Shown here piece by piece: positions 25,767 through 51,648 of a stretch of 64,000 nucleotides of DNA. The stretch comes from Patescibacteria group bacterium (GTDB lineage Bacteria; Patescibacteriota; Minisyncoccia; Phycocordibacterales; Phycocordibacteraceae), in the NCBI GenBank assembly GCA_040388985.1, contig JAZKAU010000002.1, positions 247,642 to 311,641 on the forward strand, written 5' to 3'. Position 1 is the first letter of the stretch. The number at the start of each line of letters is the position of its first letter. The notes beneath the pieces were generated by a model. It was not told the origin of the DNA and made no database searches. It was given only the letters and a program-made list of their open reading frames with translations. A program made the position numbers and the translations under genes.

Positions 25767-25773
25767 TACCGCC

Positions 25774-27006: not shown

Positions 27007-27130
27007 GACTTACTTAAGGTGAGGTATACCCACTGCTTGCTCGCATGTGATGTATAAAAGGACGCGCTCTAGTATATGATTACGAGAGCTGGAACTCATT
27101 CGTGCTCAACGATTCCGGCATACTCTTTAC

Positions 27131-28906: not shown

Positions 28907-28917
28907 CTGACTACCGC

Positions 28918-29322: not shown

Positions 29323-29354
29323 CCTGGCGCCGATAAAGCGTTACGAACATTCAT

Positions 29355-30431: not shown

Positions 30432-30606
30432 GGACAAACTAAAACGTTCATCTGCGTCGTTGCTCGCTCCGATTCGCATTCACCGTATAGCTCATACGGC
30501 TCATTGCGATTCTCGCTCGTGCCTAGCATCTGAAGCCTTTTAGACTTGCCCTTAATCCCCGCAGGGCGCTATCTGTAGGCCTCGCTTTGCTATAAGCTAT
30601 AGGTAC

Positions 30607-31815: not shown

Positions 31816-31910
31816 CGGGATTATCCACAGGGAGCGTATACATTCCTTCATCTTCACGTACAATACGGGAAGCGGACCACTTATTTATCAACCCGCATCA
31901 CCAATCTTTT

Positions 31911-32357
31911 ATGACACTAGTATCCTCTAAAGCACGACGCGGTCTTTCCGAGGACGCGCGCTCAGGCTTCACCCTCATCGAGCTCCTCGTCGTTATAGCC
32001 ATCATCGGCATCCTCTCGTCGGTCGTGCTGGCTTCGCTCAACACCGCTCGCAATAAGGGTGCAGATGCGGCTATCAAGTCGAACATCAATAACGCGCGCG
32101 CTGCAGCGGAGCTCTACTACGACTCTCAGTCGCCTAACAGCTATACGGGCGTCTGTGCCTCAGCCAGCGGTATCGCCCCTATGGTTACGGGAACGAACAG
32201 TGCCGGAGGTACGGCATCATGTCTTGATACGGGCGGCGCTGCATGGAGACTCTCTTCTGTGCTGAAGGCAGTCTCTCCGACGAGTTATTACTGCGTCGAT
32301 AGCACTGGCGTCTCCAAGATCACTACTACGGCTCCTACCACGACTGCGTGTCCGTAA
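31911..32357 (+). CDS. type IV major pilin (prepilin), paralogue 1
   Basis: Class III signal: leader ...ARSG / FTLIELLVVIAIIGILSSV with E5. Confidence 0.8.
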   Translation: MTLVSSKARRGLSEDARSGFTLIELLVVIAIIGILSSVVLASLNTARNKGADAAIKSNINNARAAAELYYDSQSPNSYTGVCASASGIAPMVTGTNSAGGTASCLDTGGAAWRLSSVLKAVSPTSYYCVDSTGVSKITTTAPTTTACP

Positions 32358-32376
32358 GGATCAGAAGGATACTGTG

Positions 32377-32431
32377 CCGGTGTGCATAGCAAAGGGCGAC
32401 CCGAAGGGTCGCCCTTTGCTATGCACACCGG
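32377..32431. terminator. 25-bp perfect-stem hairpin between the paralogous pilin genes
   Basis: CCGGTGTGCATAGCAAAGGGCGACC cgaag GGTCGCCCTTTGCTATGCACACCGG; no U-tract. Confidence 0.5.
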
Positions 32432-32499
32432 CTACGCCGTCAGTAGGTCGCGTGGCGTATAGTAAAGATATCAGCCGTTAACGGAACGAATGCATTTCT

Positions 32500-32997
32500 A
32501 TGTCCCTATCTAGCCGAAGTAATCAAGCCGGCTTCACCCTCATCGAGCTCCTCGTCGTTATAGCCATCATCGGCATCCTCTCGTCGGTCGTGCTGGCTTC
32601 GCTCAACACCGCTCGCAATAAGGGTGCAGATGCGGCTATCAAGTCGAATCTCGCTAACGCGCGAGCGCAGGCAGAATCGTATTACGACAGCAACACTCTG
32701 AGCTATCTGAATGCCTGCACGTCGGGCGCTACCGCTGCCGGCGTGAAGGGTATCTATGACTTCGCCCTCTCTGCCTCGAACTCCGCGGGCATTGCTCTGG
32801 CGAATCTGAACACTACGCTTGGAAACGCTGGCGCGGTCGGTCTCAAGGTGACCTGCCACGCTTCTGCAACGGGATACGCTCTCGAGTCGCCGCTCAAGAC
32901 GGACGCTACGAAGATGTATTGTGTCGACAATCTGGGCTTCAACGGCGTTCAGAATACCGGTCAGTTCCTCGCCGGTAGCGATGTACAGTGTAATTAG
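32500..32997 (+). CDS. type IV major pilin (prepilin), paralogue 2
   Basis: Leader MSLSSRSNQAG / FTLIELLVV. The first ~45 mature residues are identical to paralogue 1. Confidence 0.8.
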   Translation: MSLSSRSNQAGFTLIELLVVIAIIGILSSVVLASLNTARNKGADAAIKSNLANARAQAESYYDSNTLSYLNACTSGATAAGVKGIYDFALSASNSAGIALANLNTTLGNAGAVGLKVTCHASATGYALESPLKTDATKMYCVDNLGFNGVQNTGQFLAGSDVQCN

Positions 32998-33033
32998 CAT
33001 GCAGGACGCCAGACTCTCGCAGGTGACGCGCGC

Positions 33034-33783
33034 ATGACCGCTCTTATTCTCAGCTCCCTCGCCATACTCGGCGCGATATGCGCGAGTTTTGTGGGTGTCG
33101 TCGCTGAGCGCGCGTATACCGGTCAGTCATGGAAGCGCGGGCGTTCGCGCTGCAATTCGTGCCGGCAGTCGCTCGGTGCCCGTGACCTGCTGCCGGCAGT
33201 ATCCTGGTTCGCATATCGTGGACGATGCCGCATGTGCCGCTCGAAAGTACCAGTGCGCTACGCAGTGTCTGAAATCGCCCTCGCGGCTCTCTTTGTGCTC
33301 AGCTACCTACATCTGGGTCTGGGTCTTCCGCTCGTGCTCTTTCTCAGCTTCCTTTGCGTATTAAGCTTCGTCGTTATCTACGATCTGCACCACCACATCG
33401 TTCCGCTACCCGCCTCGGCACTTCTGATACTCATCGCTCTGGCGTATATGCTCACGACTGCCAGTACTATCGCTCATCTTGAATTCACGCTACTCGTAGC
33501 CGCTCTCGTCGCGCTCTTCTTCTTCAGCCTCTATTTCTTCTCTCGCGGACGAGCCATGGGACTCGGCGATACGCCGGTAGCCTTCGCGCTCTCGCTCCTT
33601 AGCGGTTCTACGGCCATAGCTGGGCTCTTCTTCTCTTTCTGGGTGGGGGCGGTTATCGGCATTGCCATATTGGTTTCTCGCCCCGGTGGGCCTAGAATGG
33701 GTATAGAGGTGCCGTTCGTGCCGTTTCTCGCGATCGGCTTTCTCCTGGCATTCTTTACCCAATGGAACCCGCTCCCTTTCTAA
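33034..33783 (+). CDS. pilD: prepilin peptidase PilD (A24 family)
   Basis: N-terminal Zn-binding CNSC...CRMC, catalytic Asp motifs, polytopic membrane protein. Confidence 0.82.
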   Translation: MTALILSSLAILGAICASFVGVVAERAYTGQSWKRGRSRCNSCRQSLGARDLLPAVSWFAYRGRCRMCRSKVPVRYAVSEIALAALFVLSYLHLGLGLPLVLFLSFLCVLSFVVIYDLHHHIVPLPASALLILIALAYMLTTASTIAHLEFTLLVAALVALFFFSLYFFSRGRAMGLGDTPVAFALSLLSGSTAIAGLFFSFWVGAVIGIAILVSRPGGPRMGIEVPFVPFLAIGFLLAFFTQWNPLPF

Positions 33784-33827
33784 GACTTGCAGACAGAAGA
33801 CGTGCATCGCGAAGCGATGCACGTGAT

Positions 33828-34505
33828 GTGGCGGCCTGCGCTCCGGCAGGGTTCACGCTGGTAGAGATGGTAGTCGTGCTCGCTATCATAGGGATACTCA
33901 CGACGATAACCCTGCTCGGCCAGTCGACGTTCAATCAATCCCTCCTGCTTACCGACACTGCCTATACGATGGCCTTCTCAGCGCGCGAAGCGCAATCCTT
34001 CGGCCTCTCGAGCCGGCAATTCGGCGGGATACAGAACGCGGGCGCGGGCTATGGCCTGCATTTCGACCGCTCTTTGCCGGGTTCCTATATCCTCTTTGCC
34101 GACATATCCCATTTCTTAACCCCCGTGTCTTCTACGATATGCCCGCCGAATGTCCCGGGTACGCCTGAGCAGCGCCCGGGTAATTGTCGCTATGATGCTT
34201 CAGGTCCCGCCGACGGTACGGTCGAGACATTCACCTTTTCACGCGGCTTCACTATACTGAGGTTCTGCGGAAAGACATCAGGATCCTCGAAAGAATGTTC
34301 AGACGACTCCTCCTTGCCGCTTACATCGCTTGATATCGTATTTACGAGGCCCAATACGTCCGCAACCATATCGGGCATGCGCGCGAGCTCGCTCGACCTG
34401 TTCTCCTGTGCCGAAGTGACGGTCACCGACCAGACCAAGACGGCGTCGAAGATCATACGCTTATCCCAGTTGGGCGAGATATCCGTAGGCCAGACATGTC
34501 CATGA
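33828..34505 (+). CDS. minor pilin / pseudopilin
   Basis: Prepilin N-terminus AG / FTLVEMVVVLAIIGIL. The likely start is the in-frame GTG at 33828, giving an 8-aa leader; the ATG-initiated frame starts at 33762 and overlaps pilD. Confidence 0.6.
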   Translation: MAACAPAGFTLVEMVVVLAIIGILTTITLLGQSTFNQSLLLTDTAYTMAFSAREAQSFGLSSRQFGGIQNAGAGYGLHFDRSLPGSYILFADISHFLTPVSSTICPPNVPGTPEQRPGNCRYDASGPADGTVETFTFSRGFTILRFCGKTSGSSKECSDDSSLPLTSLDIVFTRPNTSATISGMRASSLDLFSCAEVTVTDQTKTASKIIRLSQLGEISVGQTCP

Positions 34506-34585
34506 TGAAAACAGCAGATAGCACAGAGAGGATAGGAGATAATGGCAATGCGACGCGCCGCGTCGCACGGGCTACTATTCCCCAT

Positions 34586-35155
34586 ATGCTCACCCCTAAG
34601 CACTCGCCGCGTGGCTTCACCCTGCTCGAGCTCATCGTCTCCATCGGCCTTTTCACCGTGGTCATGACCATTGCCATGAGCGCCTATCTTTCGCTCATCA
34701 GTCTCAACCGGAAAGCGCGCGCTACTAACGACGTCGTCTCGAATCTCTCCTATGTCGTCGAGTCCATGGGTCGTTCTATCCGAACCGGCACGAATTACGA
34801 CTGCGGAGGGCTCGGAGGAGCCCAGAATTGCTGGGATTCGACCGGCAGCACGCAGTTCAATTTTACCAACAGCAATGGTCAGACCATGACCTATCTCCTG
34901 CAGTCGGGGGGCGTCATAGGCATGTGCCCTGACGCTACGTCATGCGGCAATCCGCAGCCGCTCACCGATCCGCGCATAAATGTTACAGACCTGCACTTCT
35001 TCGTGCAGGGAGTCGGCACGACTGGCGGGGACCTGAGCCTCCAGCCGCGCGTCGTCTTCACTATTTCTGGCTCGATAACGCCTGAAGTCGGCGCTGCGCC
35101 CGTGAGCTTCAGCATCCAGAGCAGCGCGACCGAGCGTCTCATCGACATACCATGA
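34586..35155 (+). CDS. minor pilin / pseudopilin
   Basis: MLTPKHSPRG / FTLLELIVSIGLF; the longer frame starts at 34496. Confidence 0.6.
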   Translation: MLTPKHSPRGFTLLELIVSIGLFTVVMTIAMSAYLSLISLNRKARATNDVVSNLSYVVESMGRSIRTGTNYDCGGLGGAQNCWDSTGSTQFNFTNSNGQTMTYLLQSGGVIGMCPDATSCGNPQPLTDPRINVTDLHFFVQGVGTTGGDLSLQPRVVFTISGSITPEVGAAPVSFSIQSSATERLIDIP

Positions 35156-35220
35156 TGAAAAGAGCGCATACCATGCAGTTGATAGGGAAGACACGAACCG
35201 CATCAGGCAGTGATACAGGC

Positions 35221-35748
35221 ATGACCGCGCTGCCTCCCGCAGGCTTCACCTTAGTCGAGACCTTGGTCGCCATAACGATACTCATGATAGCTATCGTAGG
35301 TCCGTTCTACTCCGTGCAGCAGGCGATCAGCGCTTCATACGCTGCGCGCGACCAGCTCATCGCCTCATCGCTCGCGCAGGAAGGTGCCGAATACATCTAT
35401 TTCCTTCGCGATAATAACTATCTGTCGGGTACCGGTAACTCATGGCTTCAGAATATGGATGCCTGCAAGGTGAATACTCTCTCGGACCCGGGCTGTACGG
35501 TCGATCCGACACAGGGTAATGCGCTTGCTGCCTGCTCGTCGAGCGGGTGCCTGCCGCTACGACTGAGCTCTACCGGCCTTTACACGCAGAATACTCTCGG
35601 CGGATATCCGGTGACGCGCTTCACGCGCACGGTCAAGATCCTGCAAGTCTCGGCGAGCGAAGCGAAGGTCGTCGTGCAGGTTACATGGTCTACGAGCCAC
35701 CGGCCGTATACTATTACGGTGACTGACGACCTCTATAACTGGCTATGA
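35221..35748 (+). CDS. minor pilin / pseudopilin
   Basis: MTALPPAG / FTLVETLVAITILMIAI; the longer frame starts at 35152. Confidence 0.65.
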   Translation: MTALPPAGFTLVETLVAITILMIAIVGPFYSVQQAISASYAARDQLIASSLAQEGAEYIYFLRDNNYLSGTGNSWLQNMDACKVNTLSDPGCTVDPTQGNALAACSSSGCLPLRLSSTGLYTQNTLGGYPVTRFTRTVKILQVSASEAKVVVQVTWSTSHRPYTITVTDDLYNWL

Positions 35749-36257
35749 TGACTCCCACTATCTTTCCTCGGGAGCTTGTCCAGGACGCACGTTCCGGGTT
35801 CGCGCTCCTCATAGCTATCATCTTCACTTCGGTGGTGCTCGCGCTCGGCGCATCTCTGCTTGATGTCGCCTATAAGCAGGTGTTGCTCTCCTCAAGCGCG
35901 AAGCAGTCGCAGTACGCCTTCTATAACGCCGATTCGGCCCTTGAGTGCGCGCTGTACTGGGATCAGACATCCAACGCATTCAGCTATAGCGCGCCTGCGC
36001 CCGGTGGATCGATCGTCTGCGACAGCCAGGCGGTAAAGGCCTATTCAAGCACTCAAGATGCGTTCGCCGGACTGCGCACTACAGTCTTCGGCACCTCCGA
36101 TACGTCAGACCCTACCTGCACAGGAAGCAATATCTCGGCCACCGTGACCGTGCTCAAGCAAACCGACGGGAGCACCAGGATATACGCTGATGGATATAAT
36201 ACGTGCAACGCATCAAGCAATACTAGGATTGAGCGCGGCCTGAAAGTTCACTATTAA
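35745..36257 (+). CDS. minor pilin-like protein
   Basis: ARSG / FALLIAIIFTSVVLAL N-terminal hydrophobic segment. 4-nt overlap with the upstream gene. Confidence 0.55.
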   Translation: MMTPTIFPRELVQDARSGFALLIAIIFTSVVLALGASLLDVAYKQVLLSSSAKQSQYAFYNADSALECALYWDQTSNAFSYSAPAPGGSIVCDSQAVKAYSSTQDAFAGLRTTVFGTSDTSDPTCTGSNISATVTVLKQTDGSTRIYADGYNTCNASSNTRIERGLKVHY

Positions 36258-40952: not shown

Positions 40953-41290
40953 AGCGGGGTAGAGGAGTGGTACCTCGGGAGGCTCATCAAAAGGTGACCC
41001 TATCCGGTAACGGGTAGCGGAAAAACTCTCTAAATTGCTGGAATACCGTTAGAGCTTTCTGTGCTACAACGTGATTCGAAAGGGTGAGCGTGAATGCTTG
41101 AAAAACGGAAAGATTCGGCAATCAGCAGCCAAGCCGAGCCCATTCTAACGAATAGGCTCGGAAGGTTCAGAGACTATAATGGGAGGATCCCGCATCTATT
41201 AAGATTTGGGATCATGGTATAGTCCATTCCTGTTGGAAACATCAGGTGTAAAAGAACCTCCAGGCGCCGGTTCAATTCCGGCCCCCGCAA
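40953..41290 (+). tRNA. initiator tRNA-fMet (anticodon CAU) interrupted by a group I intron
   Basis: 5' exon 40953-40987: AGCGGGG-TA-GAGG-AGTGGTA-CCTC-G-GGAGG-CTCAT. 3' exon 41255-41290: AA-CCTCC-AGGC-GCCGG-TTCAATT-CCGGC-CCCCGCA-A. Very close to the E. coli tRNA-fMet 3' end. 1:72 mismatch (A1xA72). Confidence 0.8.
40988..41254 (+). ncRNA. group I intron (267 nt) in the tRNA-fMet anticodon loop
   Basis: 5' splice site after U36 with an internal guide GGUGA pairing the exon CUCAU. Omega-G at 41254. Core motifs P (AATTGCTGGAA, 41033), Q (AATCAGCAGCC, 41119), R (GTTCAGAGACTA, 41165), S (GGTATAGTCC, 41216). Confidence 0.8.
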
Positions 41291-41358
41291 CACGGTTGTG
41301 ATAGTGGAACCAAGACCGGTTCCCCTCAGAGATTAGTTCAGTACCGGTCCGAGTCAAT

Positions 41359-41392
41359 GCAGAGAAAGGCGCCGAGAGGCGCCTTTCTCTGC
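41359..41392 (+). terminator. 15-bp stem hairpin with GAGA tetraloop downstream of tRNA-fMet
   Basis: GCAGAGAAAGGCGCC gaga GGCGCCTTTCTCTGC. Confidence 0.5.
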
Positions 41393-41429
41393 TCCGAATA
41401 AAACGTCAAATGCGCTATACTTTCAGAAC

Positions 41430-43988
41430 ATGCCCAATCTTCTTGTTCTTTCAGGGCTACAAAAGAAAACTTCCGCGTTCGTAGTGGTATGTATATTCGT
41501 TTGTGCTTTTCCCGTCTCCTTGGTGCACGCGGCTTCGGTGCCAGTGGTCGGATTCAATAACCAGCCGAGCCAGACATCCGATACAGCCGTTACTATAGAT
41601 GTTCATATCAATGATACTGAAAGCGATCCGTCCTCTATTTCCATTCGCTATTCGCTTGACGGGGGAAATATCTGGCACGATGCCATGCACCTTTCCGGCG
41701 CTTCTTTTCCCATATCAGGCAATAGCGTTACTGGAATAACGACTTATGGCGATGGTCCGAATAACCGTTCGAACGTAGCATTCCATTGGGATTTCAGCGC
41801 AGAGCCCGGAATCGCGAGCTCTACCGAGACGGAAATAGAAGTGACTCCCCATGATGCTTCTGGCGACGGCGAACCGATCGTGTCAGATCCGTTCATGCTT
41901 ACGGCGCCGACGCCACCAGCCTCACCACCCGTGTTCGCGGAAGACTCAGGAGCGGTGACGGACATCACGCAGACGTCCGTCATCGTGCACTACGACATGA
42001 GCAGTGAAGGTTCTGCTCCGCTCTCGCATTTCGAACTCGATTACGCGAGCGATGCGTATTATCTCGCGCACGCCTCTTACGCGGAACACACGCCCATTAC
42101 GTTCTCGGGAGCATTTGCCGACTCAGGTGCCACTAATGTTACCGGCCTTTCCTGCGGTGCGATGTACCACTTCGCGCAGACGTTCACGAATGGTGACGGA
42201 CAATCCGCGACTTCCACCGATGCGACTTTCACGACAAGCCCATGCGACGGGGGAGGCGATGGCGGAGGAACGCCGTTCACCGAAGGCGATGGTTCGAGCA
42301 ATACACCGTTCATCGTGGATGACTGTACGCAGATTCCGACGATAAACGACGATTTGAGCGCGGCATACCTCCTTGATGCGAACCTCGACTGTCGCGAGAT
42401 GGGTACCGATGTCATGATAGGCGGTTTTGGCATGAATCCCTTCACGGGAACGTTCGATGGTGGCGGGCATTCTATTGCCATTGACATAGAGAACGCGGGC
42501 CAGCCAGGCATGGGTCTTTTCCGCTCGCTGTATGGAGCAACCGTGCACGACCTCGCCATAGCGCCTGACAGCATAGTTCTTGGTCAAGATGTAGACGGGA
42601 GCATTGCCGGTTTTGCATATAACTCGACCCTGACGCGCGTGGGATCAGCAGCCTTCGTCGTATCCGCAGCTACGACGCCTCAGTTTCCGCTTGCCGGAAC
42701 GGGCGGACTCGTCGGCGCGCTCTTTAGCTCGCAGATATACGGATCGGAATTCACGGGCATCGCCGCCTCGCCTTTTATCGTCGGTGGCATCGCAGGCCTT
42801 GTCATGAATGATCTTTCTGACGGACCACCGTCATTGATCTCGCGTTCGGATTCGGTCGGAGGTATATATAGCGGACTTTCTGCGGGCGGCGTCGCAGGCT
42901 ATCTCGATGGCGGGTCACAAATCCGTAATAGCTACTCAAGCAGCACGGTGCAGTTCAATGACGAGTTTGCGGGTTCTGATCCGCAGACGGGCGGCTTCGG
43001 CGGCCTTGTAGGCGTCATGGCCAGCGGCATCATATCCCGTAGTTATGCCGCAGGCTCTGTTGCCGCTGGCCCAGACTCAGTATTCTTCCCGTCAGGCGGC
43101 CTTGTCGGTTTCATGGAGTCGCCGGACGCACGTATCGTGCATTCGTTCGCCGCGCCGAACATTACGACTGATGGGGCTCCCGTCGGAGGATTCGTTGGTG
43201 GCGTGAATGAATCGGAAACACCGTTAACAGGGTTATATGATGACTATTTCGACACGCTAAGGACTGAAGAGACCGTGTGTGTTTCCGGCGATACTAGTGC
43301 ACGAGCCGATTGTACGGGCGTAGACGGTAGCGCGAGCGGATACTGGCTCAACACGCATGATACGCCGATAGCGGCATGGAACATTTCTGAAGTGTGGGAT
43401 GTTTCTGGTGAGCATGATGGATTTCCACTCCTTCTCGGATATGCGGGTCCAGAAACAGAAGAATCAGATGCACGCGATTCTGGCGAAGACAGCGTTAGCG
43501 AGGATATTCCTCTTCCTTCGCATCATTCGGGCAGCGCGCCGTCTAAGCGCAGCGTGCTGAGTCGCCTCGACACGTATCTCAAGAATGGAGACAGCAAAGG
43601 CCTGGCGGAGTACGTGCAGCGTAACCAAGGACGTCTCGATCAATATGTCGAACAAGGTCAAGCGCTTCCTCCCGAAGTCGCGTCGCTTCTCAGTATCGGG
43701 CCTGCGGCCGCGCCTGTCGTCGTCGTGACGTATCCGCTTCGGAACCTTCAGAAAGGGATGGCGGGTGGCGATGTGAGCGCGCTCCAGACGCTCCTCATAA
43801 AGGAGGCGGCAGGGTCGGCCGCCTCAGTGCTTGCGCAGACCGGTGCAACGGGTTATTTCGGTCCGCTGACTCAAGCAGCGCTCGCTGAATATCAGAAAGC
43901 GCACGGTATCGTCCCGTCTGCCGGTTACTTCGGTCCGCTCACGCAAGCGTTGATGAAAGCTGCGGGATTGACGGGACTGTGGTGGTAG
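41430..43988 (+). CDS. secreted GLUG-motif repeat surface protein with Fn3-like N-terminal region and C-terminal PG_binding_1 domain
   Basis: 852 aa. Signal peptide. Repeated Gly-rich GGLVG / GGIAGL / GGVAGY / GGFGGLVG blocks (GLUG-like). C-terminal GATGYFGPLTQAALAEYQ. Confidence 0.75.
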   Translation: MPNLLVLSGLQKKTSAFVVVCIFVCAFPVSLVHAASVPVVGFNNQPSQTSDTAVTIDVHINDTESDPSSISIRYSLDGGNIWHDAMHLSGASFPISGNSVTGITTYGDGPNNRSNVAFHWDFSAEPGIASSTETEIEVTPHDASGDGEPIVSDPFMLTAPTPPASPPVFAEDSGAVTDITQTSVIVHYDMSSEGSAPLSHFELDYASDAYYLAHASYAEHTPITFSGAFADSGATNVTGLSCGAMYHFAQTFTNGDGQSATSTDATFTTSPCDGGGDGGGTPFTEGDGSSNTPFIVDDCTQIPTINDDLSAAYLLDANLDCREMGTDVMIGGFGMNPFTGTFDGGGHSIAIDIENAGQPGMGLFRSLYGATVHDLAIAPDSIVLGQDVDGSIAGFAYNSTLTRVGSAAFVVSAATTPQFPLAGTGGLVGALFSSQIYGSEFTGIAASPFIVGGIAGLVMNDLSDGPPSLISRSDSVGGIYSGLSAGGVAGYLDGGSQIRNSYSSSTVQFNDEFAGSDPQTGGFGGLVGVMASGIISRSYAAGSVAAGPDSVFFPSGGLVGFMESPDARIVHSFAAPNITTDGAPVGGFVGGVNESETPLTGLYDDYFDTLRTEETVCVSGDTSARADCTGVDGSASGYWLNTHDTPIAAWNISEVWDVSGEHDGFPLLLGYAGPETEESDARDSGEDSVSEDIPLPSHHSGSAPSKRSVLSRLDTYLKNGDSKGLAEYVQRNQGRLDQYVEQGQALPPEVASLLSIGPAAAPVVVVTYPLRNLQKGMAGGDVSALQTLLIKEAAGSAASVLAQTGATGYFGPLTQAALAEYQKAHGIVPSAGYFGPLTQALMKAAGLTGLWW

Positions 43989-44013
43989 GCCGGTTCAATT
44001 CTGGCCCTCGCTA
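43988..44013 (+). repeat. partial direct copy of the tRNA-fMet 3' end (T-arm plus acceptor); candidate attR-like scar
   Basis: GGCCGGTTCAATTCTGGCCCTCGCTA versus the tRNA GCGCCGGTTCAATTCCGGCCCCCGCAA (24/27). Confidence 0.55.
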
Positions 44014-44050
44014 AGGACGTTCCATTTTTGATGCGATGCCCATCCTGGCG

Positions 44051-44078
44051 GTGAATGAACGCAAAAGCCGCCCAAGGG
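44051..44078 (+). terminator. rho-independent terminator
   Basis: GCAAAAGCCGCCC aa GGGCGGCTTTTGC followed by GTTTGT. Confidence 0.6.
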
Positions 44079-44113
44079 CGGCTTTTGCGTTTGTACGTAC
44101 CGAATCTTCGTAT

Positions 44114-44326
44114 TTAGGACGCGCGCATATAGCACTTGCAGCCCCCGCCCATCCACTTCACGAGGCCGGCGAGAATCACCAGGATCGGCCACGCGACGCT
44201 CGTAAAGCTGACCGTAACGACGTTCAGCGCCTCAAGCAAGAAGAGGAGGCCGAGCAGGATGATGAGAACGGGCATGGTCTTGTGGTGTCCGCAGGAGCAC
44301 GCCGGGGCGTTATTCATGTGATTCAT
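44114..44326 (-). CDS. small hypothetical membrane protein with Cys/His-rich termini
   Basis: 70-aa ORF with CSCGHH at the N-terminus, a TM helix, and GGGCKC at the C-terminus. No RBS. Weak call. Confidence 0.3.
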   Translation of the reverse strand: MNHMNNAPACSCGHHKTMPVLIILLGLLFLLEALNVVTVSFTSVAWPILVILAGLVKWMGGGCKCYMRAS

Positions 44327-44435
44327 ACTTGAATACAGGCAGGTTACGGCTTATAGGATTACTCTATAATCATACCCCGAATATCAGGGCCGCCCGAAGT
44401 CAGGGTGCATAACGCCTGTTAGAATAAAGTTATCT

Positions 44436-45023
44436 ATGGAAGCTAACCCGCTCTTACGGAAAGGACTTTTTCTCGAATATCTAACGCTGGGCTGGAATGT
44501 CGTCGGGTCCGTAATCGCGGTATGGGCAGGTATTCAGGCATCTTCCCTCGCGATCTTCGGTTTCGGCATCGACTCAGTCATAGAGATATTCGCTTCCGTC
44601 GTGGTGGTCTGGCAGTTGAAAGCTATCAATACGGACAATGAGCGCTTCGCGCTCAAGCTCATCGGCGCGGCATTCATGGCGCTATCCCTCTATCTGCTCG
44701 TGCGCGCAGTCAGTACGCTCGTACACCACGTTCATCCGCAGGCTTCCACGCTCGGCGCGCTCTGGCTTCTTATAACCGCGATAGCCATGTTCCTGCTCGC
44801 GCACGGCAAGAGACGGGTAGGGAAGCAGTTAGGAAATACGGTGCTTCAGGAGGAGGCCATCGTCACGGCTGTTGATGGACTGCTCGCGGCAGCGCTTCTT
44901 CTCGGGGTCCTGCTTGATATGTACCTGGGGTGGTGGTGGGCCGACCCGCTCGCGAGTCTCGTCCTCGTCTATATCGGCGGACGCGAGGCTATCCACATTT
45001 TCGTGGGCAGCCATTCTCATTAA
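44436..45023 (+). CDS. cation diffusion facilitator-like membrane protein (TM domain only)
   Basis: Six TM helices; GFGIDSVIEIF and WADPLASLVLV motifs resemble CDF TM2 and TM5; no cytoplasmic C-terminal domain. Confidence 0.5.
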   Translation: MEANPLLRKGLFLEYLTLGWNVVGSVIAVWAGIQASSLAIFGFGIDSVIEIFASVVVVWQLKAINTDNERFALKLIGAAFMALSLYLLVRAVSTLVHHVHPQASTLGALWLLITAIAMFLLAHGKRRVGKQLGNTVLQEEAIVTAVDGLLAAALLLGVLLDMYLGWWWADPLASLVLVYIGGREAIHIFVGSHSH

Positions 45024-45069
45024 GACTATACTGTGCGTATGTCCGTCCTGAAGCTTTCCTCGCTCTGCT

Positions 45070-46446
45070 ATGTTTGATCCGCGACGCGCAGCATACAAAT
45101 TCTTCAAGGCGCCTGCCGAGGCGCTTGAGAAGACCATAGAATACGCAGAAGCCGGCGAACACGCGCTTGCGAGCAAGAAGCCGCTGCGGCTCGCCGGAGA
45201 ATATTTCAATACGCTCGGGCCCGGCCTCACGACAGGCGCCGCTGATGACGACCCTTCGGGCATCGGCACCTACTCTCAGACCGGCGCGCAGTTCGGCTTC
45301 CAGCTGCTCTGGCTCTCGCTCCTCACTTTCCCGTTCATGGCGATGGTTCAGGAGATGTGCGCGCGCATCGGACTCGTTACGGGGCAGGGACTTGCGGCCA
45401 ATATCCGCAAGTACTATTCACGGCAGACGCTTCATTTCATTACGATCCTTCTCTTCGCCGCAAATGCGCTCAACATCGCCGCGGACCTCGGCGCCATGGC
45501 GGCAAGCACGAAACTTCTTTTTCCGCACATAAGCGTGGCCTTAGTCCTCATATTATTCGCGCTTGTGAGCCTATTGCTCCAGATATTCACTACGTACGCG
45601 CGGTATGCCAGGTTCCTGAAATACACGGCGCTCGCGCTCCTCGCCTACGTCTTCACCGCCTTTGCCGTTCATGTCGACTGGGCGGCGGCGCTTCGCGGCA
45701 CCGTCATCCCTACCTTGCAGCTGTCCAAGGATCAGCTTTTCCTCCTCTGCGCCATTCTCGGTACCACCATATCGCCCTATCTCTTCTTCTGGCAGACCTC
45801 CCAGGAAGTCGAAGAAGATATCCTCAAAGGGGAGAAGACAGTAGCGCAGCGCAAGGCCGCGGTCGAGCCGCAGGACATCGCGCGCATGCGTGTTGATGTA
45901 TGGACCGGCATGTTCGTCTCGAATCTCATCATGTTCTTCATCATCGCCGCCTGCGCGGCGACGCTCCATGCAAACGGCATCACGAATATCGCCACCGCTG
46001 ACCAGGCCGCCTCAGCCATCCGGCCGTTCGGCGGCGCGCTGACCTACTTCTTCTTCGCGCTCGGCATCATCGGCACGGGACTGCTCGCCGTCCCGGTACT
46101 GGCAGGCTCGAGCGCCTACGCTATCGCTGAGAGTTTCGGCTGGAAGCAGGGTCTCTACCGCAAGCTCAAGCAGGCCTATGCCTTCTACGGCGTCATCATC
46201 GTCTCGATGCTTATCGGCCTGGTCGCGAACTTCATGCACCTGGACCCGATCAAGGGCCTCATCTACTCTGCAGTCGCTAACGGTCTCGTCGCCCCTATCG
46301 TGCTCTTCTACATCGTGCGCATGAGCAGCAACAAGAAGATCATGCATACGAGAAAGAATCATCCGTTCATCACTGTCTGCGGGTGGATCATTACGGTCAT
46401 CATGGTAGTCGCCGGCGCTGCCGCCATCGGCTCGCTTTTCTTCTAG
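45070..46446 (+). CDS. mntH: Nramp-family divalent metal transporter
   Basis: GPGLTTGAADDDPSGIGTYS Nramp signature, 11-12 TM helices, 458 aa. Confidence 0.85.
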   Translation: MFDPRRAAYKFFKAPAEALEKTIEYAEAGEHALASKKPLRLAGEYFNTLGPGLTTGAADDDPSGIGTYSQTGAQFGFQLLWLSLLTFPFMAMVQEMCARIGLVTGQGLAANIRKYYSRQTLHFITILLFAANALNIAADLGAMAASTKLLFPHISVALVLILFALVSLLLQIFTTYARYARFLKYTALALLAYVFTAFAVHVDWAAALRGTVIPTLQLSKDQLFLLCAILGTTISPYLFFWQTSQEVEEDILKGEKTVAQRKAAVEPQDIARMRVDVWTGMFVSNLIMFFIIAACAATLHANGITNIATADQAASAIRPFGGALTYFFFALGIIGTGLLAVPVLAGSSAYAIAESFGWKQGLYRKLKQAYAFYGVIIVSMLIGLVANFMHLDPIKGLIYSAVANGLVAPIVLFYIVRMSSNKKIMHTRKNHPFITVCGWIITVIMVVAGAAAIGSLFF

Positions 46447-46565
46447 ATTAGACCGAAGCTTTTCATCGCCGCGGCAATAACAGAGCTCAAAGCAAGGTTC
46501 TGAGCCGTCGGCGACAGGGATCAGTACCTAATCGGAAAAGCTGCAAGGTCGTATATACTACTTTC

Positions 46566-47576
46566 ATGTCAATGGAGCGCGCCGCAAAGCGGAATCTCGA
46601 TAGTACTCAGCAACTCTTGGAAAGAGGCCGCATCGCCTCTCCAAACGAATTACAACGGCAACTGACCGAGACCTGGATACTTCCGTATCAAGAGCTAATC
46701 ATAGAGGACGTCGGAGTCCTTCGGAAAGAAGCTGATAAGTCCCTTGAAAAAGATAGCGAGATTCGCCAACAACTCCGAAGCTGGGATAAGAAATACCCAG
46801 AAGGCTTTTGCCGGGAAATCAATGCGGCAGTATACGACCGCATGATGGGAGCGATGTTGGACCGCAGCTTGCCGGGCCTTCAGGCGGTCAAGAACTTCAT
46901 ACGGGAAGGCGGTATCGTACAGAAATTCTGGGGAATCGACAAAGGCCGCTATTTCCAGAATGCGATACAGATAGGAAATTCGATCCTAGACGTTGCGAAC
47001 GACACGGTTGACCCGAGCAAGCCTCCGGTCGTCTTCTACCCGAACATGGGCGAAGCTCCTCTAAAGAACATCGAGACAATAGCAGAGTTCGCAGATGTCG
47101 TGGAAAGCTACTGGGATCGCGAGGTCTATCCGAATATCTATTTCCCGCATCTCGCTCCCGTGTTTCCGGTACTGTCCATAATGGCACCCAGAGGTCCGGT
47201 AAAGGACGAAATTCTTGGATTCGAGACCGATAACCTGATTCTGGCCTTCAACAATATCGGGACCGTGCGTGACGGCCATCTGTTCGGGCTCTCCTCAGAT
47301 TTCATATTTCATAGCACGTATAGCGATAAGCGCATTCCTGACGCCATGCTGGCTAACTTATTCGAGAGTGAGAATGTAAGGAAACTGCAAAGACGCCGCC
47401 CGGGCGGCTTATTCGAAGTTACTGATGATCCGGAGAAGGCCAGGGAAGTATTTGCATCCTATCATTACTATCCAGGCATGACGGAGATCCCTAAGTCGTG
47501 CACGGATGATTTTGTGGAGCAAGCCCGATTCGCAAGGGGGCTTGAGCGCGCTATCCTAGCGAAAGTACGAAAATAG
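46566..47576 (+). CDS. hypothetical protein
   Basis: Lower-GC 336-aa ORF with no recognised motif. Confidence 0.55.
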   Translation: MSMERAAKRNLDSTQQLLERGRIASPNELQRQLTETWILPYQELIIEDVGVLRKEADKSLEKDSEIRQQLRSWDKKYPEGFCREINAAVYDRMMGAMLDRSLPGLQAVKNFIREGGIVQKFWGIDKGRYFQNAIQIGNSILDVANDTVDPSKPPVVFYPNMGEAPLKNIETIAEFADVVESYWDREVYPNIYFPHLAPVFPVLSIMAPRGPVKDEILGFETDNLILAFNNIGTVRDGHLFGLSSDFIFHSTYSDKRIPDAMLANLFESENVRKLQRRRPGGLFEVTDDPEKAREVFASYHYYPGMTEIPKSCTDDFVEQARFARGLERAILAKVRK

Positions 47577-47639
47577 CTGCCCCGACTTCTCGGCACGCGT
47601 TCATCATAGGTACATACGAAGCCGGTATATACTTGGAGC

Positions 47640-48365
47640 ATGAAAAAAGACATCACCATAGGCGGCGCAGCCGTATACCATACGTATCCTGACGACGGGC
47701 AGAAGCACCCGGGGCTTATCGTTATCGAGGAGATCTGGGGCGTAAACGACCACATCCGCTCGGTGGCTGATCGATTCGCGTCTGAAAGGTACAGCGTGCT
47801 CTCGCCTGAACTACTGCCGCCCGGCTTGCTGGAGGCGCTCACGCCACAGGTACAGAAGGATCTCTTCGATCCTGAGAAACGACACGAGGTGCAGCCGAAG
47901 CTGCGTGAAGCCATGGGTCCTATCAACCAGCCCGAGTATGCGGCTGCGACCATTGCGACCCTCAAGGCCTGTGTCGACTATCTGCTTGCGGACGAAGGAG
48001 TCAGCGGCAACGTTGCCGTCGTCGGTTTCTGCTTCGGCGGCAGCTACAGCTTCCATCTGGCTGGGCACGACTCACGTATACGGGCTGCGGTCCCGTTCTA
48101 CGGTCACCCGCCGAAAGATGATGAATTGCCGAACATCAGCTGCCCGATACTGGCCTTTTATGGTGACCAAGACGCCGCTCTGATGGAGTCGCTCCCGAAG
48201 CTCAAAGAAGACATGGAAAAGTCCGGGAAGAACTTCGAGCCTGTCGTATATCCTGGTGTCGGCCATGCCTTCTTCAATGACACGAATGCACGCGCCTATG
48301 ATGCCGGAACCGCGCAGGACGCGTGGGAGAAGGCGCTTGCGTTCTTGCGAACGAATCTGACGTAG
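47640..48365 (+). CDS. dienelactone hydrolase-family alpha/beta hydrolase
   Basis: Nucleophile elbow VVGFCFGGSYS; C-terminal GVGHAF His motif. Confidence 0.8.
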   Translation: MKKDITIGGAAVYHTYPDDGQKHPGLIVIEEIWGVNDHIRSVADRFASERYSVLSPELLPPGLLEALTPQVQKDLFDPEKRHEVQPKLREAMGPINQPEYAAATIATLKACVDYLLADEGVSGNVAVVGFCFGGSYSFHLAGHDSRIRAAVPFYGHPPKDDELPNISCPILAFYGDQDAALMESLPKLKEDMEKSGKNFEPVVYPGVGHAFFNDTNARAYDAGTAQDAWEKALAFLRTNLT

Positions 48366-48497
48366 AGCAGTCAGGGGGGAGGGCAGGTCGAATTCGACTT
48401 ATGCCATAGGCCAGGCTAGCTGCATATATAAAGCGCGTAGAGAGCTAGATACATAGCCTAATCGTCTTCATACATAGCTAATCAGATTAGTAGTACC

Positions 48498-49370
48498 ATG
48501 CTCTCACCTATGACTATTCACGCTCGGATGCTCTCGTATCTAGCTCTTCCGTTCTTTGCGGCGGGAATGTTCATGACGGCGGCACCCGCAGCCCACGCGG
48601 CAGAGACCATACATGTTTCAAAGAACTGGTCCGGATACACGGCCTCGGGCGGCTCCTATTCGGCAGTATCCGCTACGTGGATAGTGCCTGCAGTGAGCGA
48701 GAACCCGAATCCTCTGTCCGCAAGCGCCGCATGGGTCGGTATCGGCGGCCTGTCGGATCCGAATCTTATCCAGGCCGGTACTCAGGCGGTACTTGAGAAC
48801 GGTCAGGTGAGCTATCAGGCCTGGTACGAGACGCTACCGGACTCAGAACATGCACTCCCGCTTGCGCTTCATCCGGGAGATACCGTCTCAGTATCTATCA
48901 GGGAAGTCCTCGCAGGCCTCTGGCAGATACACGTTACCGATCAGACGACGGGGCAGGGTACGCAGACCAGCTTGTTCTACGATTCGTCGAACTCTTCTGC
49001 AGAATGGATAGTCGAGCGTCCGCTCGCCATTATGGACGACGGGACAGGATATCTGCCCCTGAACGATTTCGGTACGGTTTCCTTCCAGAACGTATCAGCT
49101 GGCGTGAACGGCGACATCGTTCCGCTTAGAGCGATCGATAGCCAGCAAGTGGTCATGAGCAGTAGCGGTTCTTCGCTGCTCGCGGCACCATCTGCTATAA
49201 CCTCAGACGGCAGCGGATTCTCCGTGTCCTATCTTACGCGCAAGCAGAGCGCGCAATACCTCAGCTCAGTGCATCGCGTATTCCGGCCTACCACCCCGGA
49301 ATCTTCGAACATCCCGGCTTCGTCGATCGGTGAGATAGGACGTGGAGCACTCATCCACATCGTATTCTAG
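48498..49370 (+). CDS. secreted peptidase G1 (eqolisin/A4)-like beta-sandwich protein
   Basis: Signal peptide; NWSGY...SATWIVP...AAWVGIGG...LIQAGT pattern typical of glutamic peptidases. Confidence 0.5.
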   Translation: MLSPMTIHARMLSYLALPFFAAGMFMTAAPAAHAAETIHVSKNWSGYTASGGSYSAVSATWIVPAVSENPNPLSASAAWVGIGGLSDPNLIQAGTQAVLENGQVSYQAWYETLPDSEHALPLALHPGDTVSVSIREVLAGLWQIHVTDQTTGQGTQTSLFYDSSNSSAEWIVERPLAIMDDGTGYLPLNDFGTVSFQNVSAGVNGDIVPLRAIDSQQVVMSSSGSSLLAAPSAITSDGSGFSVSYLTRKQSAQYLSSVHRVFRPTTPESSNIPASSIGEIGRGALIHIVF

Positions 49371-49400
49371 GAGCGACGATTACGTCGCTCCTGCTCGAGA

Positions 49401-49829
49401 CTACTTGGAAGCTTTTGCGCTCACGACGCTCTCGTGGATCTCCTGAGTAAGGGTATTATTTATCTCGACTAGGCGGTGGACTTCGTCCTGAATCCTCAGA
49501 AGCGCTTCAGCGTCGCGATACGTCTGGAGCGCTTGCTTGTCGGAGGCGGCTGCAGCGACTTTCTGTCCGACCATGATGACGGACAGAAGCACCAATTGGA
49601 GGAAAGTCTGCGCTATCCAAGAAATGAGCGTCGCTGTTCCGCCGTGGATGGCGGCAGGGAGGCTCACGAGCGCGAGAAGCGCGAATAGATAGGCGCACCA
49701 CATCGTGCCTACGGCGTTCGTAATGATAAGTGCCACACGGCCATTGAATCCGAGCCGCTCATGCTGGGTCAAGTGCGGACCGCTCTGCGCGCGCTCAGTG
49801 ATGCGAGGATTAGGTATATGATTTTCCAT
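49401..49829 (-). CDS. DUF1003-like membrane protein
   Basis: Two TM helices plus a C-terminal coiled-coil; ATG at 49829. Confidence 0.5.
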   Translation of the reverse strand: MENHIPNPRITERAQSGPHLTQHERLGFNGRVALIITNAVGTMWCAYLFALLALVSLPAAIHGGTATLISWIAQTFLQLVLLSVIMVGQKVAAAASDKQALQTYRDAEALLRIQDEVHRLVEINNTLTQEIHESVVSAKASK

Positions 49830-49895
49830 ACCTATAACTATTAGGGATTCCGGTCCTAAATACAACGTCGGGCACAGGATAAATAATCCATATGG

Positions 49896-50318
49896 CTAGT
49901 ACTCTCGGGATGTGGCGATGCCATGCTGCCCGACGACCTTGAAATTTATATATAGGTTGAAGAGATAATTCCCGAATCCGACGATACCGGCGACGAGTAT
50001 GCGCGCGATAAGGAAGTTCAGATTAAGAAGTGAGACGAGGCTGGCCACCAGGAGAGTCGTGACGACCGCCCCGACCAGGGCGACCAGGGCGAAGTAGACA
50101 TAGCCATGCTTCCAGCCGCGCTTCGTCCGCGTAAATACGATACGCCTGCTCACGGCGTAATTGACGCTTATGGCAATGAGGAAGGAAACAGGGGTCGCGA
50201 TGTAGAGCGAGACCCCAGCCAGACGTACTGCTGCGTAGAGTAGGCAGAGATCAAAGGCGAGCGTTCCGACGCCTATCCCGGCGTATCTGAGGAAACGCCG
50301 GAGCGCCTGACGGTTCAT
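49896..50318 (-). CDS. GtrA-family membrane protein
   Basis: Four TM helices; RYAGIGVGTLAFDLCLLYA GtrA-like N-terminus. Confidence 0.6.
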   Translation of the reverse strand: MNRQALRRFLRYAGIGVGTLAFDLCLLYAAVRLAGVSLYIATPVSFLIAISVNYAVSRRIVFTRTKRGWKHGYVYFALVALVGAVVTTLLVASLVSLLNLNFLIARILVAGIVGFGNYLFNLYINFKVVGQHGIATSREY

Positions 50319-51565
50319 GAGCGCGAAGGACCCGACGCGGATTCGGAGCCAATCGCCTGCGCGAGCCGCTCAAGGGCGATGACGTATGCGCTGCGGCGCA
50401 GATCGGTGGATAGGGCGGTGGAGCGCCCAAAGACTTCGCGCGCCTGATCGGCAAGGACGGTCTCAAGTTTCTGGTCAACATCTGCTTCGCTCCAATGCTC
50501 TCCCTTAAGGTTCTGCTCCCATTCCAAATATGAGACGACTACGCCACCGGAATTGGCGAGTATGTCCGGAATGACCGTTACTCCTTTCTTGAGCAAGATG
50601 TCATCGGCTGCGGGCGTGGTGGGGCCGTTGGCAAGTTCGAGTATGACCTTTGCCTTGATGTCGTGCGCGTTATCTTCGGTGATCTGATTCTCAAGGGCAG
50701 CCGGTACCAGGACGTCGGTATCGAGCGTAAGAAGCGCCTCGTTAGTGATCGGTTGCGCTCCAGGGAATCCTTGTAGGGAACCTGTCTCCTTCTTATAAGC
50801 TTCGACGCGCGCGACATCGAGTCCGGCAGGATCATAGATGCCGCTTCGCGAGTCTGACATCGCGATGACGCGGTGTCCGCCTCGAGCGAAGACGTGGGCG
50901 GCTTCGCCGCCCACGTTCCCCATGCCTTGTATAACGATGCGCGCTGACGCAGGCACGCCGAGCGCTTCCCGCAACGTGTCGAAGACGATATAGCCGCCCA
51001 GTCCTGTAGCCTTGCCGCGACCTTCTGAGCCGCCGTCTGACACAGGCTTTCCGGTGAAGGAGGCGTGCGTGGTGTCGTCCGTGAGCTTTTCATATTCATC
51101 GACCATCCAGGACATTATCTGCGGCGTGGTGTTCACATCAGGCGCCGGAATATCAATGGACGGTCCGATATCACGATACAGGGCCCGTACCCACGCGCGC
51201 GATAGTCGTTCCAACTCGGCCGCACTCAGTATCTTCGGGTCAACCGTTATGCCGCCTTTGCCGCCGCCGAGCGGTAGATCTGTAAGCGCGGTCTTAAGCG
51301 TCATCCAGAGCGCCAGCGCCTTCACTTCGTCCATGTCGGCCTTCGGATGGAAGCGGATACCGCCCTTATAGGGTCCACGCAGATTCGAGTGCTGGACACG
51401 GTAGCCGGTGAAGCTTCTCATCTCACCGTCATCCGTACGGATCCGCAGCGTAGCAGTCAGCTCCCGGTCGGGACGCGAAAGACGATCGATAATGAGCGGG
51501 TCCAGAGCGCCCGCGACGCGGGCGCGTTCCAACTGACTCAGAGCGTTCGTGAAGGGAGTGTCCAT
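50315..51565 (-). CDS. gdhA: Glu/Leu/Phe/Val-family glutamate dehydrogenase
   Basis: KGGIRFHP, GGGKGG, catalytic Lys context, NAD Rossmann GMGNVGG. ATG at 51565; the GTG frame extends to 51595. Confidence 0.88.
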   Translation of the reverse strand: MDTPFTNALSQLERARVAGALDPLIIDRLSRPDRELTATLRIRTDDGEMRSFTGYRVQHSNLRGPYKGGIRFHPKADMDEVKALALWMTLKTALTDLPLGGGKGGITVDPKILSAAELERLSRAWVRALYRDIGPSIDIPAPDVNTTPQIMSWMVDEYEKLTDDTTHASFTGKPVSDGGSEGRGKATGLGGYIVFDTLREALGVPASARIVIQGMGNVGGEAAHVFARGGHRVIAMSDSRSGIYDPAGLDVARVEAYKKETGSLQGFPGAQPITNEALLTLDTDVLVPAALENQITEDNAHDIKAKVILELANGPTTPAADDILLKKGVTVIPDILANSGGVVVSYLEWEQNLKGEHWSEADVDQKLETVLADQAREVFGRSTALSTDLRRSAYVIALERLAQAIGSESASGPSRS

Positions 51566-51648
51566 AGGGAAGGGAGTACGACTATAGTACGCCACTCACG
51601 TAAAATTATTTCGTCAGAACCTACCTGCTATAGTGAGATATCGTACCT

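Follow-up and report, generated by a model that had tools for sequence, protein, structure and literature searches.

The 64,000-nucleotide (nt) stretch of a Patescibacteria group bacterium genome analyzed here (contig JAZKAU010000002.1, positions 247,642 to 311,641; referred to below as the window) contains an initiator tRNA gene (tRNA-fMet), followed by a gene encoding a large secreted GLUG-repeat protein (the GLUG gene) and, immediately behind the stop codon of this gene, by a decayed copy of the tRNA 3′ end. A reading made from the sequence alone had taken this arrangement to be a degraded or mobilized 2.7-kb islet that delivers a surface adhesin-like protein; we find that the tRNA copy is the scar of an old recombination at a hot spot linked to the tRNA, and that the segment is not a freshly imported island. 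The explanation that we favor, to which we assign a probability of about 45%, is that the GLUG segment is an immobile relic cassette of same-clade origin and represents the tRNA-proximal layer of an approximately 10-kb variable region linked to tRNA-fMet.

The copy of the tRNA end starts directly where the GLUG open reading frame (ORF) ends: the stop codon TAG occupies positions 43986–43988 and the next base begins GCCGGTTCAATTCTGGCCCTCGCTA (43989–44013), such that the plus strand reads ...CTGTGGTGGTAG, then GCCGGTTCAATTCTGGCCCTCGCTA, then AGGACG..., with the sequence from 44014 onwards being AGGACGTTCC... Its counterpart, GCCGGTTCAATTCCGGCCCCCGCAA at 41266–41290, comprises the T-arm and the 3′ acceptor strand of the upstream tRNA-fMet and lies in direct orientation. 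Aligned without gaps, the two copies are identical at 21/23 positions, at 22/25 up to the discriminator base, and at 22/26; the 24 of 27 positions counted previously describe a real match, although this figure is slightly generous as it is reached only by opening a gap of 2 nt in the variable loop. A second match with three or fewer mismatches occurred in none of 100 dinucleotide-preserving shuffles, and the next-best matches in the window (17/26) are at a level that shuffled sequence reaches approximately 1.15 times per 20 kb; the direct repeat of the tRNA-fMet 3′ end right after the GLUG stop codon is therefore real, as had been claimed. No tRNA 5′ half was found upstream of the second copy, and a search for additional copies, which had been suggested along with the islet, yielded no copy other than these two across the window, the 125 fetched loci, and IMG/VR. 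Rfam searches of both repeat regions at E-values of up to 10 returned only terminator-like and microRNA noise; the fragment belongs to no Rfam family.

Among tRNA genes, the fragment is most similar to the tRNA-fMet of its own genome (22/25), followed by the tRNA-fMet genes of relatives (21/25) and by other tRNA types (≤19/25), in a comparison that leaves aside the Thr, Asp, and Met2 tRNAs of the same genome. The T-loop TTCAATT is common only to the fragment and the window tRNA-fMet, while close relatives have TTCGATT, indicating that the fragment came from the initiator tRNA of this very lineage and is young relative to the clade. Homology between the two copies is bounded by the tRNA end on the right and by the GLUG stop codon on the left; a GLUG homologue at another locus (L028) has the same C-terminus (...GLWW, TAG), but the DNA beyond its stop codon is unrelated, and the right flank of the fragment, compared with all loci by blastn-short, gave no match outside the T-arm. 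Running from the 5′ strand of the T-stem to the 3′ end of the tRNA, the duplicate has the extent expected for an attachment (att) site of the T-loop class, as this class is generally understood for tRNA-targeting integrases, which agrees with the att-type footprint that had been read into the duplicated tRNA end. This extent and these sharp edges are what a site-specific insertion at a tRNA leaves.

The 3′ end of tRNA-fMet is a sharp boundary between core and variable DNA in related Paceibacterota. Using hyp197, the gene upstream of the tRNA, as query, we obtained 23 loci from Paceibacterota-type metagenome-assembled genomes; gatA adjoins hyp197 in all loci reaching far enough upstream (gatC and ligA are kept as well in most), and tRNA-fMet follows in most loci with sequence continuing past hyp197. 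The DNA of loci L025 and L027 is 77% identical over 5.1 kb and aligns up to 6 nt past the tRNA-fMet end; beyond this boundary, only a 780-nt GLUG stretch aligns nearby. The slot after tRNA-fMet holds varying cargo in L003, L004, L005, L006, L007, and L037, and two loci carry clear insertion scars at this site. In L027, the tRNA and its terminator are followed by a 1.5-kb insert (a gene for a 152-amino acid (aa) protein and a methyltransferase gene), then by GGTACGGTACCCGCGCGGGCAAC, which is a decayed match to the tRNA end (16/24), and immediately thereafter by a conserved tRNA trailer; this order is the classical structure of an integration, with the native flank displaced to the far side. In L019, an exact 20-nt repeat (CAATTCCAGCCCCCGCAACA) is located 180 nt downstream of the tRNA. 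All nine exact matches to the tRNA-fMet end in the viral collection were full tRNA genes rather than attP fragments, and the variant represented by the fragment was unmatched there.

The GLUG genes do not group as the core genes do. A tree of LigA, GatA, and hyp197 places the window in a subclade with L002, L003, L005, L120, L007, L025, and L027, with core protein identities of 65–70% between the window and the subclade genomes and nothing closer in the collections searched. L025 and L027 are 94%, 96%, and 80% identical in GatA, GatC, and LigA, respectively, yet only 54–55% identical in GLUG, and the GLUG proteins group L027 with L121 (68%), L120 with L118 (66%), and the window with L028 (56%) and L025 (53%). 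These groupings suggest a GLUG phylogeny incongruent with the core tree; as the trees are neighbor-joining trees of few taxa, the incongruence is indicative only. At least three divergent GLUG allele classes are present at this locus in related Paceibacterota. In L028 (460–1854 on the minus strand and 1987–4977), a large serine recombinase gene lies upstream of a homologue of the window class, at a distance of approximately 6 kb that is taken up by a D12-class methyltransferase, DUF7226, and GmrSD; this context looks mobile or defense-related. No GLUG relatives were found in the viral collection.

Under the relic-cassette explanation, circular DNA would insert at the tRNA 3′ end in this lineage by Campbell-type and most likely site-specific recombination, leaving the 25-nt duplicate. 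New DNA would enter at the tRNA and older DNA would move outwards; as a result, the GLUG segment would be the youngest layer and the fragment its distal att scar, marking the distal edge of a tRNA-proximal layer that holds a single, independently transcribed gene, GLUG. The fragment is located between the GLUG segment and a block of genes from LiaI to GDH (the LiaI-to-GDH block), the position expected if older DNA is pushed outwards. The source of the cassette would lie within the clade and not in a foreign genome, and the cassette would by now be fixed and immobile, as no recombinase was found and the repeats differ at 3/25 positions. The repeat, the boundary at the tRNA end, the conserved position of GLUG, and the allele incongruence are observed; a joint arrival of repeat and GLUG segment, as well as the mode of recombination, is inferred from them. 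Alternatives in which a duplication was followed by a deletion need coincident endpoints.

Several observations weigh against a cassette inserted at the tRNA, the position of the tRNA trailer being the main evidence against the islet model. In the window, the trailer directly adjoins the intact tRNA and none follows the distal copy, whereas a standard integration should displace the trailer, as the real insertion in L027 did by 1.5 kb. The trailer and the terminator behind it align with those of L004 (2120–2187) and L007 (10950–11017), which lack GLUG and have other genes downstream, and the leading motif of the trailer recurs after tRNA-fMet in L037 and, in L012 and L018, after tRNA-Met2, suggesting that this is a native tRNA trailer; the nhmmer E-values of approximately 1e-15 to 1e-16 are self-matches of a profile built from the window, L007, and L004, and the alignment is the real evidence. 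The islet model thus holds only if the incoming DNA consisted of the tRNA end, the trailer, and GLUG from a related genome. In addition, the composition of the GLUG gene is native in the comparison of GC content and codon usage that had been proposed along with the islet: its GC content (0.562, compared to 0.556 ± 0.043), its GC content at third codon positions (0.570, compared to 0.632 ± 0.093), its codon distance (0.125, compared to 0.146 ± 0.044), and its 4-mer correlation (0.825, rank 18 of 69 segments) are all within approximately one standard deviation of the other window ORFs or segments. As had been noticed before, no integrase is present; no integrase, recombinase, resolvase, or transposase family was found in the annotated related slots or in the scanned window ORFs, a scan that skipped three short ORFs (13506–13901, 25918–26286, and 44036–44332). 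GLUG homologues are also located just downstream of tRNA-fMet in L025 (20 nt) and L120 (218 nt) and four genes from tRNA-fMet in L027, with a sigECF-ApbE-NQR block further downstream in both the window and L027; the position of GLUG is therefore conserved, and, as no distal repeat lies beside GLUG in L120, L025, or L027, vertical residence with fast divergence is possible. The sequence-only reading had named the presence of GLUG at this site in all related genomes, with no empty site, as the finding that would speak against a delivered islet, and its presence in these three loci comes close to that. An empty-site allele was not found and the slot is never empty among the related loci, as expected from collections with no relative above approximately 70% core protein identity. 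Taken together, native composition, GLUG at the same locus elsewhere, and the trailer beside the intact tRNA leave a foreign or recently delivered 2.7-kb segment without support, while an islet bracketed by tRNA ends is partly supported by the att-like extent of the repeat, the tRNA-end boundary, the scars in L027 and L019, and the GLUG incongruence.

GLUG could also be a vertically inherited, fast-evolving resident of this locus, with the fragment being the scar of a different event (e.g., an element that integrated and was then lost or reshuffled, or the rearrangement by which the LiaI-to-GDH block took the place of the usual downstream neighbors of GLUG) and the bracketing being incidental; we consider this main rival explanation somewhat unlikely. 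Presence at the same locus in four lineages spanning the subclade, the synteny of tRNA-fMet, GLUG, and sigECF-ApbE-NQR in both the window and L027, the contiguity of tRNA and trailer, and the native composition all fit such a resident gene, as does the frequency in this genome of secreted proteins with a PG_binding_1 tail. Also, a small membrane protein that is usually encoded beside GLUG (in L025, L027, L028, and L118, with a Cyt-b5 domain in L025 and L118) is missing in the window exactly at the fragment. A homologue that is 87% identical to the neighbor protein of L027 (11058–11537) is encoded 16 kb downstream, at 59966–60226; with an identity far above the 65% of core proteins, this protein would be either very strongly conserved or recently exchanged. 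However, no simple series of events puts a copy of the tRNA 3′ end downstream of a resident GLUG gene, since integration would place the copy before the trailer and GLUG, and since tandem duplication followed by deletion needs a deletion endpoint coincident with the tRNA end. The far end of the LiaI-to-GDH block has no partner repeat above chance, and 54% identity in GLUG against 94% in GatA is hard to square with plain vertical descent.

Considerably less probable is an origin of the fragment as the 3′ remnant of another tRNA gene that lost its 5′ part, most likely a member of an ancestral tRNA-Met2/Asp/Thr/Thr cluster. A second tRNA-Met, usually a tRNA-Asp, and often two tRNA-Thr follow tRNA-fMet in most hyp197 loci that continue, and this tRNA-Met2/Asp/Thr cluster is missing from the window; some tRNA-Thr T-arms are identical to that of the window tRNA-fMet, and the tRNA-Thr(CGT) of L014 matches the fragment at 19/25 positions. 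Yet the acceptor strand and discriminator match tRNA-fMet at 6/8 positions and tRNA-Thr at 4/8, the best overall match remains the tRNA-fMet of the same genome within the range of tRNAs compared above, and the 5′ strand implied by the fragment (AGCGAGG) starts with an A, as does the clade's unusual initiator (AGCGGGG). Even less credence is due to the fragment being a selected RNA signal, i.e., a T-arm-like hairpin that serves processing or stabilization, whether at the GLUG mRNA 3′ end or on the 5′ border of the bidirectional terminator. Its location in the 3′ untranslated region, 45 nt ahead of a strong terminator hairpin, and a C to T change in the T-stem that retains pairing as G·U would suit this role; the fragment is, however, absent behind the GLUG homologues of L025, L027, L028, L118, L120, and L121, lacks a complementary 5′ acceptor strand for a minihelix as well as an Rfam family match, and departs from the tRNA at three positions, two of them in the unpaired acceptor strand, as neutral decay predicts. 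A chance match, for which only the generic nature of the tRNA T-loop motif GGTTCAATTCC could be cited, is effectively refuted by the shuffles, by a background of ≤17–19/26 against the 22/26 observed, and by approximately 4e-6 expected matches per window (a rough binomial estimate).

The tRNA-fMet gene at the proximal end of the segment is interrupted by a group I intron, explaining why ARAGORN, run on the raw window, reported only tRNA-Ile(TAT) and tRNA-Ser. The splice sites were read off the exon sequences; joined, the exons are called by ARAGORN as a 72-nt tRNA-Met(CAT) with an A1·A72 mismatch, nearly identical to the intron-free tRNA-fMet at the same place in relatives. Hallmarks of bacterial initiator tRNAs are the anticodon CAU, a mismatch between positions 1 and 72, and an anticodon stem that has three consecutive G-C pairs at its base; the stem in the window consists of G-C, G-C, A-U, G-C, and G-C, with only two G-C pairs adjoining the loop, and relatives have a distinct elongator-type tRNA-Met after tRNA-fMet. 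The Rfam model RF00028 matched positions 40975–41246 with 70.4 bits (E-value 7.9e-16), above the gathering score. With this score, a U before the 5′ splice site, a terminal G, and exons that restore a canonical tRNA, the element resembles the group I introns of bacterial tRNAs and is predicted to splice. It differs in being inserted after loop position 5 (CUCAU/AA), whereas the intron of L120 is found at the classical position 2 (CU/CAUAA), which gives two insertion sites in one tRNA within one subclade. Introns are located at 5360–5612 in L006 (Rfam match) and at approximately 7528–7745 in L120, and L007 shows a similar intron-sized interruption of tRNA-fMet (approximately 10683–10912); the tRNA-fMet genes of L003, L004, L005, L025, and L027 are intron-free, and ARAGORN fails on every split tRNA-fMet gene. 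L004 also has, just upstream of the real tRNA-fMet, two tandem partial copies (1920–2062), approximately 64 nt apart, that consist of the tRNA-fMet 5′ end plus 4–6 nt of upstream sequence (CATCGCGGGGTAGAGGAGTGG).

The trailer itself begins with ACGGTTGTGAC(GCCAGGAAC) and is followed by the terminator. Besides the positions given above, it is found at 6579–6619 in L027, at 11458–11530 in L012, from 11468 in L018, and on the reverse strand directly after tRNA-fMet in L037. It belongs to no Rfam family, and RNAalifold on three trailer sequences gave a weak consensus with few compensatory pairs; the trailer may act as a signal for processing or represent a small RNA. A decayed trailer behind the fragment was considered and rejected: the flank there showed only terminator similarity (p of approximately 0.01 against mononucleotide shuffles), which was discarded as evidence because all terminators in the clade look alike. 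The simple terminator scan missed both of the perfect hairpins in this region (Table 1), since their A and T runs belong to the stems, and the inverted-repeat output was used instead. For the distal hairpin, Rfam returned only sub-threshold matches of the terminator type.

The GLUG gene has its own TATACT box, located 8 nt upstream of the ATG, and its product is predicted to be a secreted, adhesin-like protein with a peptidoglycan anchor. The claim of an 852-aa GLUG and peptidoglycan-binding surface protein stands for the anchor, since PG_binding_1 (residues 779–842, E-value 6.9e-7) scores 29.8 bits against a cut-off of 23 bits, and less firmly for the repeats, since Glug (PF07581) reaches 20.2 bits against a cut-off of 20.5 bits; nevertheless, six GG[LIVF][VA]G motifs are visible in the protein, and several homologues bear a precomputed PF07581 mark. 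Other sub-threshold Pfam matches are to fn3 and Peptidase_M26_N, and an N-terminal hydrophobic, signal-like segment, read by eye, ends with VHA/AS. An AF2 model built with nine homologues has a mean predicted local distance difference test score of 59.7, with a confident beta-helix core at residues 290–580 (mostly 60–92, block means), and Foldseek matched the model to FN3 tandems, to the Gemella IgA1 protease 7uvk, and to the right-handed beta-helix 2uve. The protein thus resembles the N-terminal region of streptococcal and Gemella IgA1 metalloproteases (PF07581, PF05342, 7uvk) in its GG[LIVF][VA]G repeats, its predicted right-handed beta-helix, the 7uvk match, and the weak Peptidase_M26_N and Glug profile matches; it differs in having no metalloprotease domain and in its N-terminal FN3-like domains and C-terminal PG_binding_1 anchor. 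Other window proteins with a PG_binding_1 tail are encoded at 9347–10915, 15252–19520, and 60719–61789.

The variable region as a whole extends over approximately 10 kb (41292–51648), between a conserved ligA-gatC-gatA-hyp197-tRNA-fMet block on the left and sigECF-ApbE-NQR on the right. Its distal part, the LiaI-to-GDH block, is absent between GLUG and sigECF-ApbE-NQR in L027, and the sigECF block shared with L027 starts after 51648 in the window. No locus joins tRNA-fMet to this flank: CDF homologues (70–84% identity) are found in unrelated contexts, and none of 80 metagenome loci with Nramp homologues (59–70% identity) has CDF or LiaI alongside. Nramp genes on metagenome contigs of the candidate phyla radiation (CPR) are often located 0.1–1.5 kb from tRNA-Met or tRNA-fMet (L037, L054, L056, L083, L085, L096, and L105); the order in L037 is hyp197, tRNA-fMet, 5.7 kb of other sequence, tRNA-Met2, tRNA-Asp, and Nramp on the opposite strand. 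To the left of the conserved block, directly upstream of ligA, a type IV pilus or competence-like cluster (23178–36257) encodes PilM, two T2SSE ATPases, T2SSF, several N_methyl pilins, and a prepilin peptidase, and is kept in L025 and L120.

Table 1. Features of the tRNA-fMet locus and of the adjoining variable region (positions in the window).
Feature	Position	Strand	Description
tRNA-fMet exon 1	40953..40987	+	Acceptor 5′ strand, D-arm, anticodon stem 5′ strand, loop CUCAU
Group I intron	40988..41254	+	267 nt; between U36 and A37; U at −1, G as last base
tRNA-fMet exon 2	41255..41291	+	Anticodon stem 3′ strand, variable loop, T-arm, acceptor 3′ strand, discriminator A, plus C
Repeat copy 1	41266..41290	+	Inside the functional tRNA; attL-like
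Conserved tRNA trailer	41292..41358	+	Approximately 68 nt (ACGGTTGTGA...GGAACC...CAGTACCGGTCCG); aligns with L007 and L004
Perfect 15-bp hairpin	41359..41392	+	Terminator-like; closes the tRNA transcription unit; inverted repeat I4
GLUG gene	41430..43988	+	852-aa secreted protein: signal peptide, two FN3-like domains, GLUG beta-helix, linker, C-terminal PG_binding_1
Repeat copy 2	43989..44013	+	Decayed T-arm and acceptor 3′ strand of tRNA-fMet; attR-like scar
Distal variable layer	44014..51648		7.6-kb block: LiaI-like (−), CDF, Nramp, hyp336, DLH, Peptidase_A4, h154 (−), GtrA (−), GDH (−)
Perfect 16-bp hairpin	44058..44091		A-run and T-run flanks; bidirectional, terminator-like, common to GLUG (+) and LiaI-like (−); inverted repeat I2

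The most atypical segment of the window is located downstream of tRNA-Ile(TAT), at 4501–7200 (4-mer correlation of 0.39 compared to a mean of 0.85; GC content of 0.48), and by its composition makes a stronger candidate for foreign DNA than the GLUG segment does; its ORFs (3038–3787, 3784–4788, 5507–6127, and 6361–6915) have no Pfam match. The tRNA-Ile (2926–3002) has the anticodon TAT (UAU), and the same tRNA recurs in the CPR metagenome loci L045, L054, L056, L083, L085, L096, and L105, while the usual bacterial solution is a tRNA-Ile with CAU plus lysidine. A gene encoding a helix-turn-helix (HTH) protein (2185–2913, plus strand) ends 13 nt upstream of tRNA-Ile(TAT), and a homologue (32% identity, E-value 2e-27) on the minus strand of L120 (6742–7443) adjoins the intron-bearing tRNA-fMet there. 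Both proteins (approximately 224–242 aa) have an N-terminal domain of the HTH_23/HTH_7 type and a C-terminal LYWGEG(S/Y)K motif, loosely reminiscent of LAGLIDADG, in a domain without a match in Pfam, PHROG, or PDB; the family has more than 1,200 members at 55–66% identity in Paceibacterota. The HTH protein beside tRNA-Ile was considered as a recombinase and rejected; because only the HTH domain matches known families and because the family is large and well conserved, no role in mobility can be claimed for it.

Variable regions that are linked to a tRNA and carry an att-type scar are well known, and this locus is a further example; the presence of such a region in a CPR genome without a visible recombinase adds some interest. 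To our knowledge, gene flow in the ultra-small, host-dependent CPR bacteria is poorly understood, with few integrative elements described. In one clade of Paceibacterota, gene turnover has a precise limit at the 3′ end of the initiator tRNA, and the genes turned over there include those for large peptidoglycan-anchored surface proteins, with no recombinase gene visible. Should the GLUG segment between the repeats be exchanged as a unit, it would offer a way to learn how surface variation arises in these bacteria; should it be no more than a scar, it would represent an ordinary footprint of past recombination. A more far-reaching reading, which we regard as improbable, is an integrase-free exchange of cassettes at the initiator tRNA 3′ end in Paceibacterota, in which related genomes would trade cassettes carrying GLUG or another single gene, each with copies of the tRNA T-arm and acceptor at its ends, by means of a recombinase that is encoded by the host or acts in trans; alternatively, DNA taken up via the type IV pilus machinery encoded upstream might circularize and recombine at the tRNA. 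Such exchange, if true, would diversify the cell surface of host-attached bacteria.

Among known systems, IMEX elements lack an integrase of their own and borrow the host XerCD at dif. The GLUG segment is similar to these in being small, limited to cargo, bounded by repeats of a chromosomal site, and without its own recombinase; it differs in that its site is a tRNA T-arm plus acceptor and not dif, and a host recombinase acting there would be putative. Islands integrated into tRNA genes by tyrosine integrases, including a T-loop sublocation class, were reportedly treated by Williams in NAR in 2002 and in the Islander/TIGER approach. As in these islands, the segment in the window is flanked by an intact tRNA on one side and by a direct repeat covering the T-arm through the tRNA 3′ end on the other side, core and variable DNA meet at the tRNA end, layers stack beside the tRNA, and the phylogeny of the GLUG cargo appears incongruent with the core, within the limits of few-taxon neighbor-joining. 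Unlike these islands, it shows no integrase in the ORFs scanned or in the annotated related slots and no deviant composition, its trailer stays with the intact tRNA, and its cargo is a single gene from a family that is a long-term occupant of the same locus. Chromosomal hot spots of gene flux, which according to Oliveira, Touchon and Rocha (2017) are said to lie between core genes and often beside tRNA or tmRNA genes, share with this locus a fixed interval (from hyp197 and tRNA-fMet to sigECF-ApbE-NQR) filled with lineage-specific genes, mostly without recognizable mobile-element genes. Here, by contrast, no more than 6 nt separate the boundary from the tRNA 3′ end, and short scars of the tRNA end persist, suggesting site-specific rather than purely homologous exchange.

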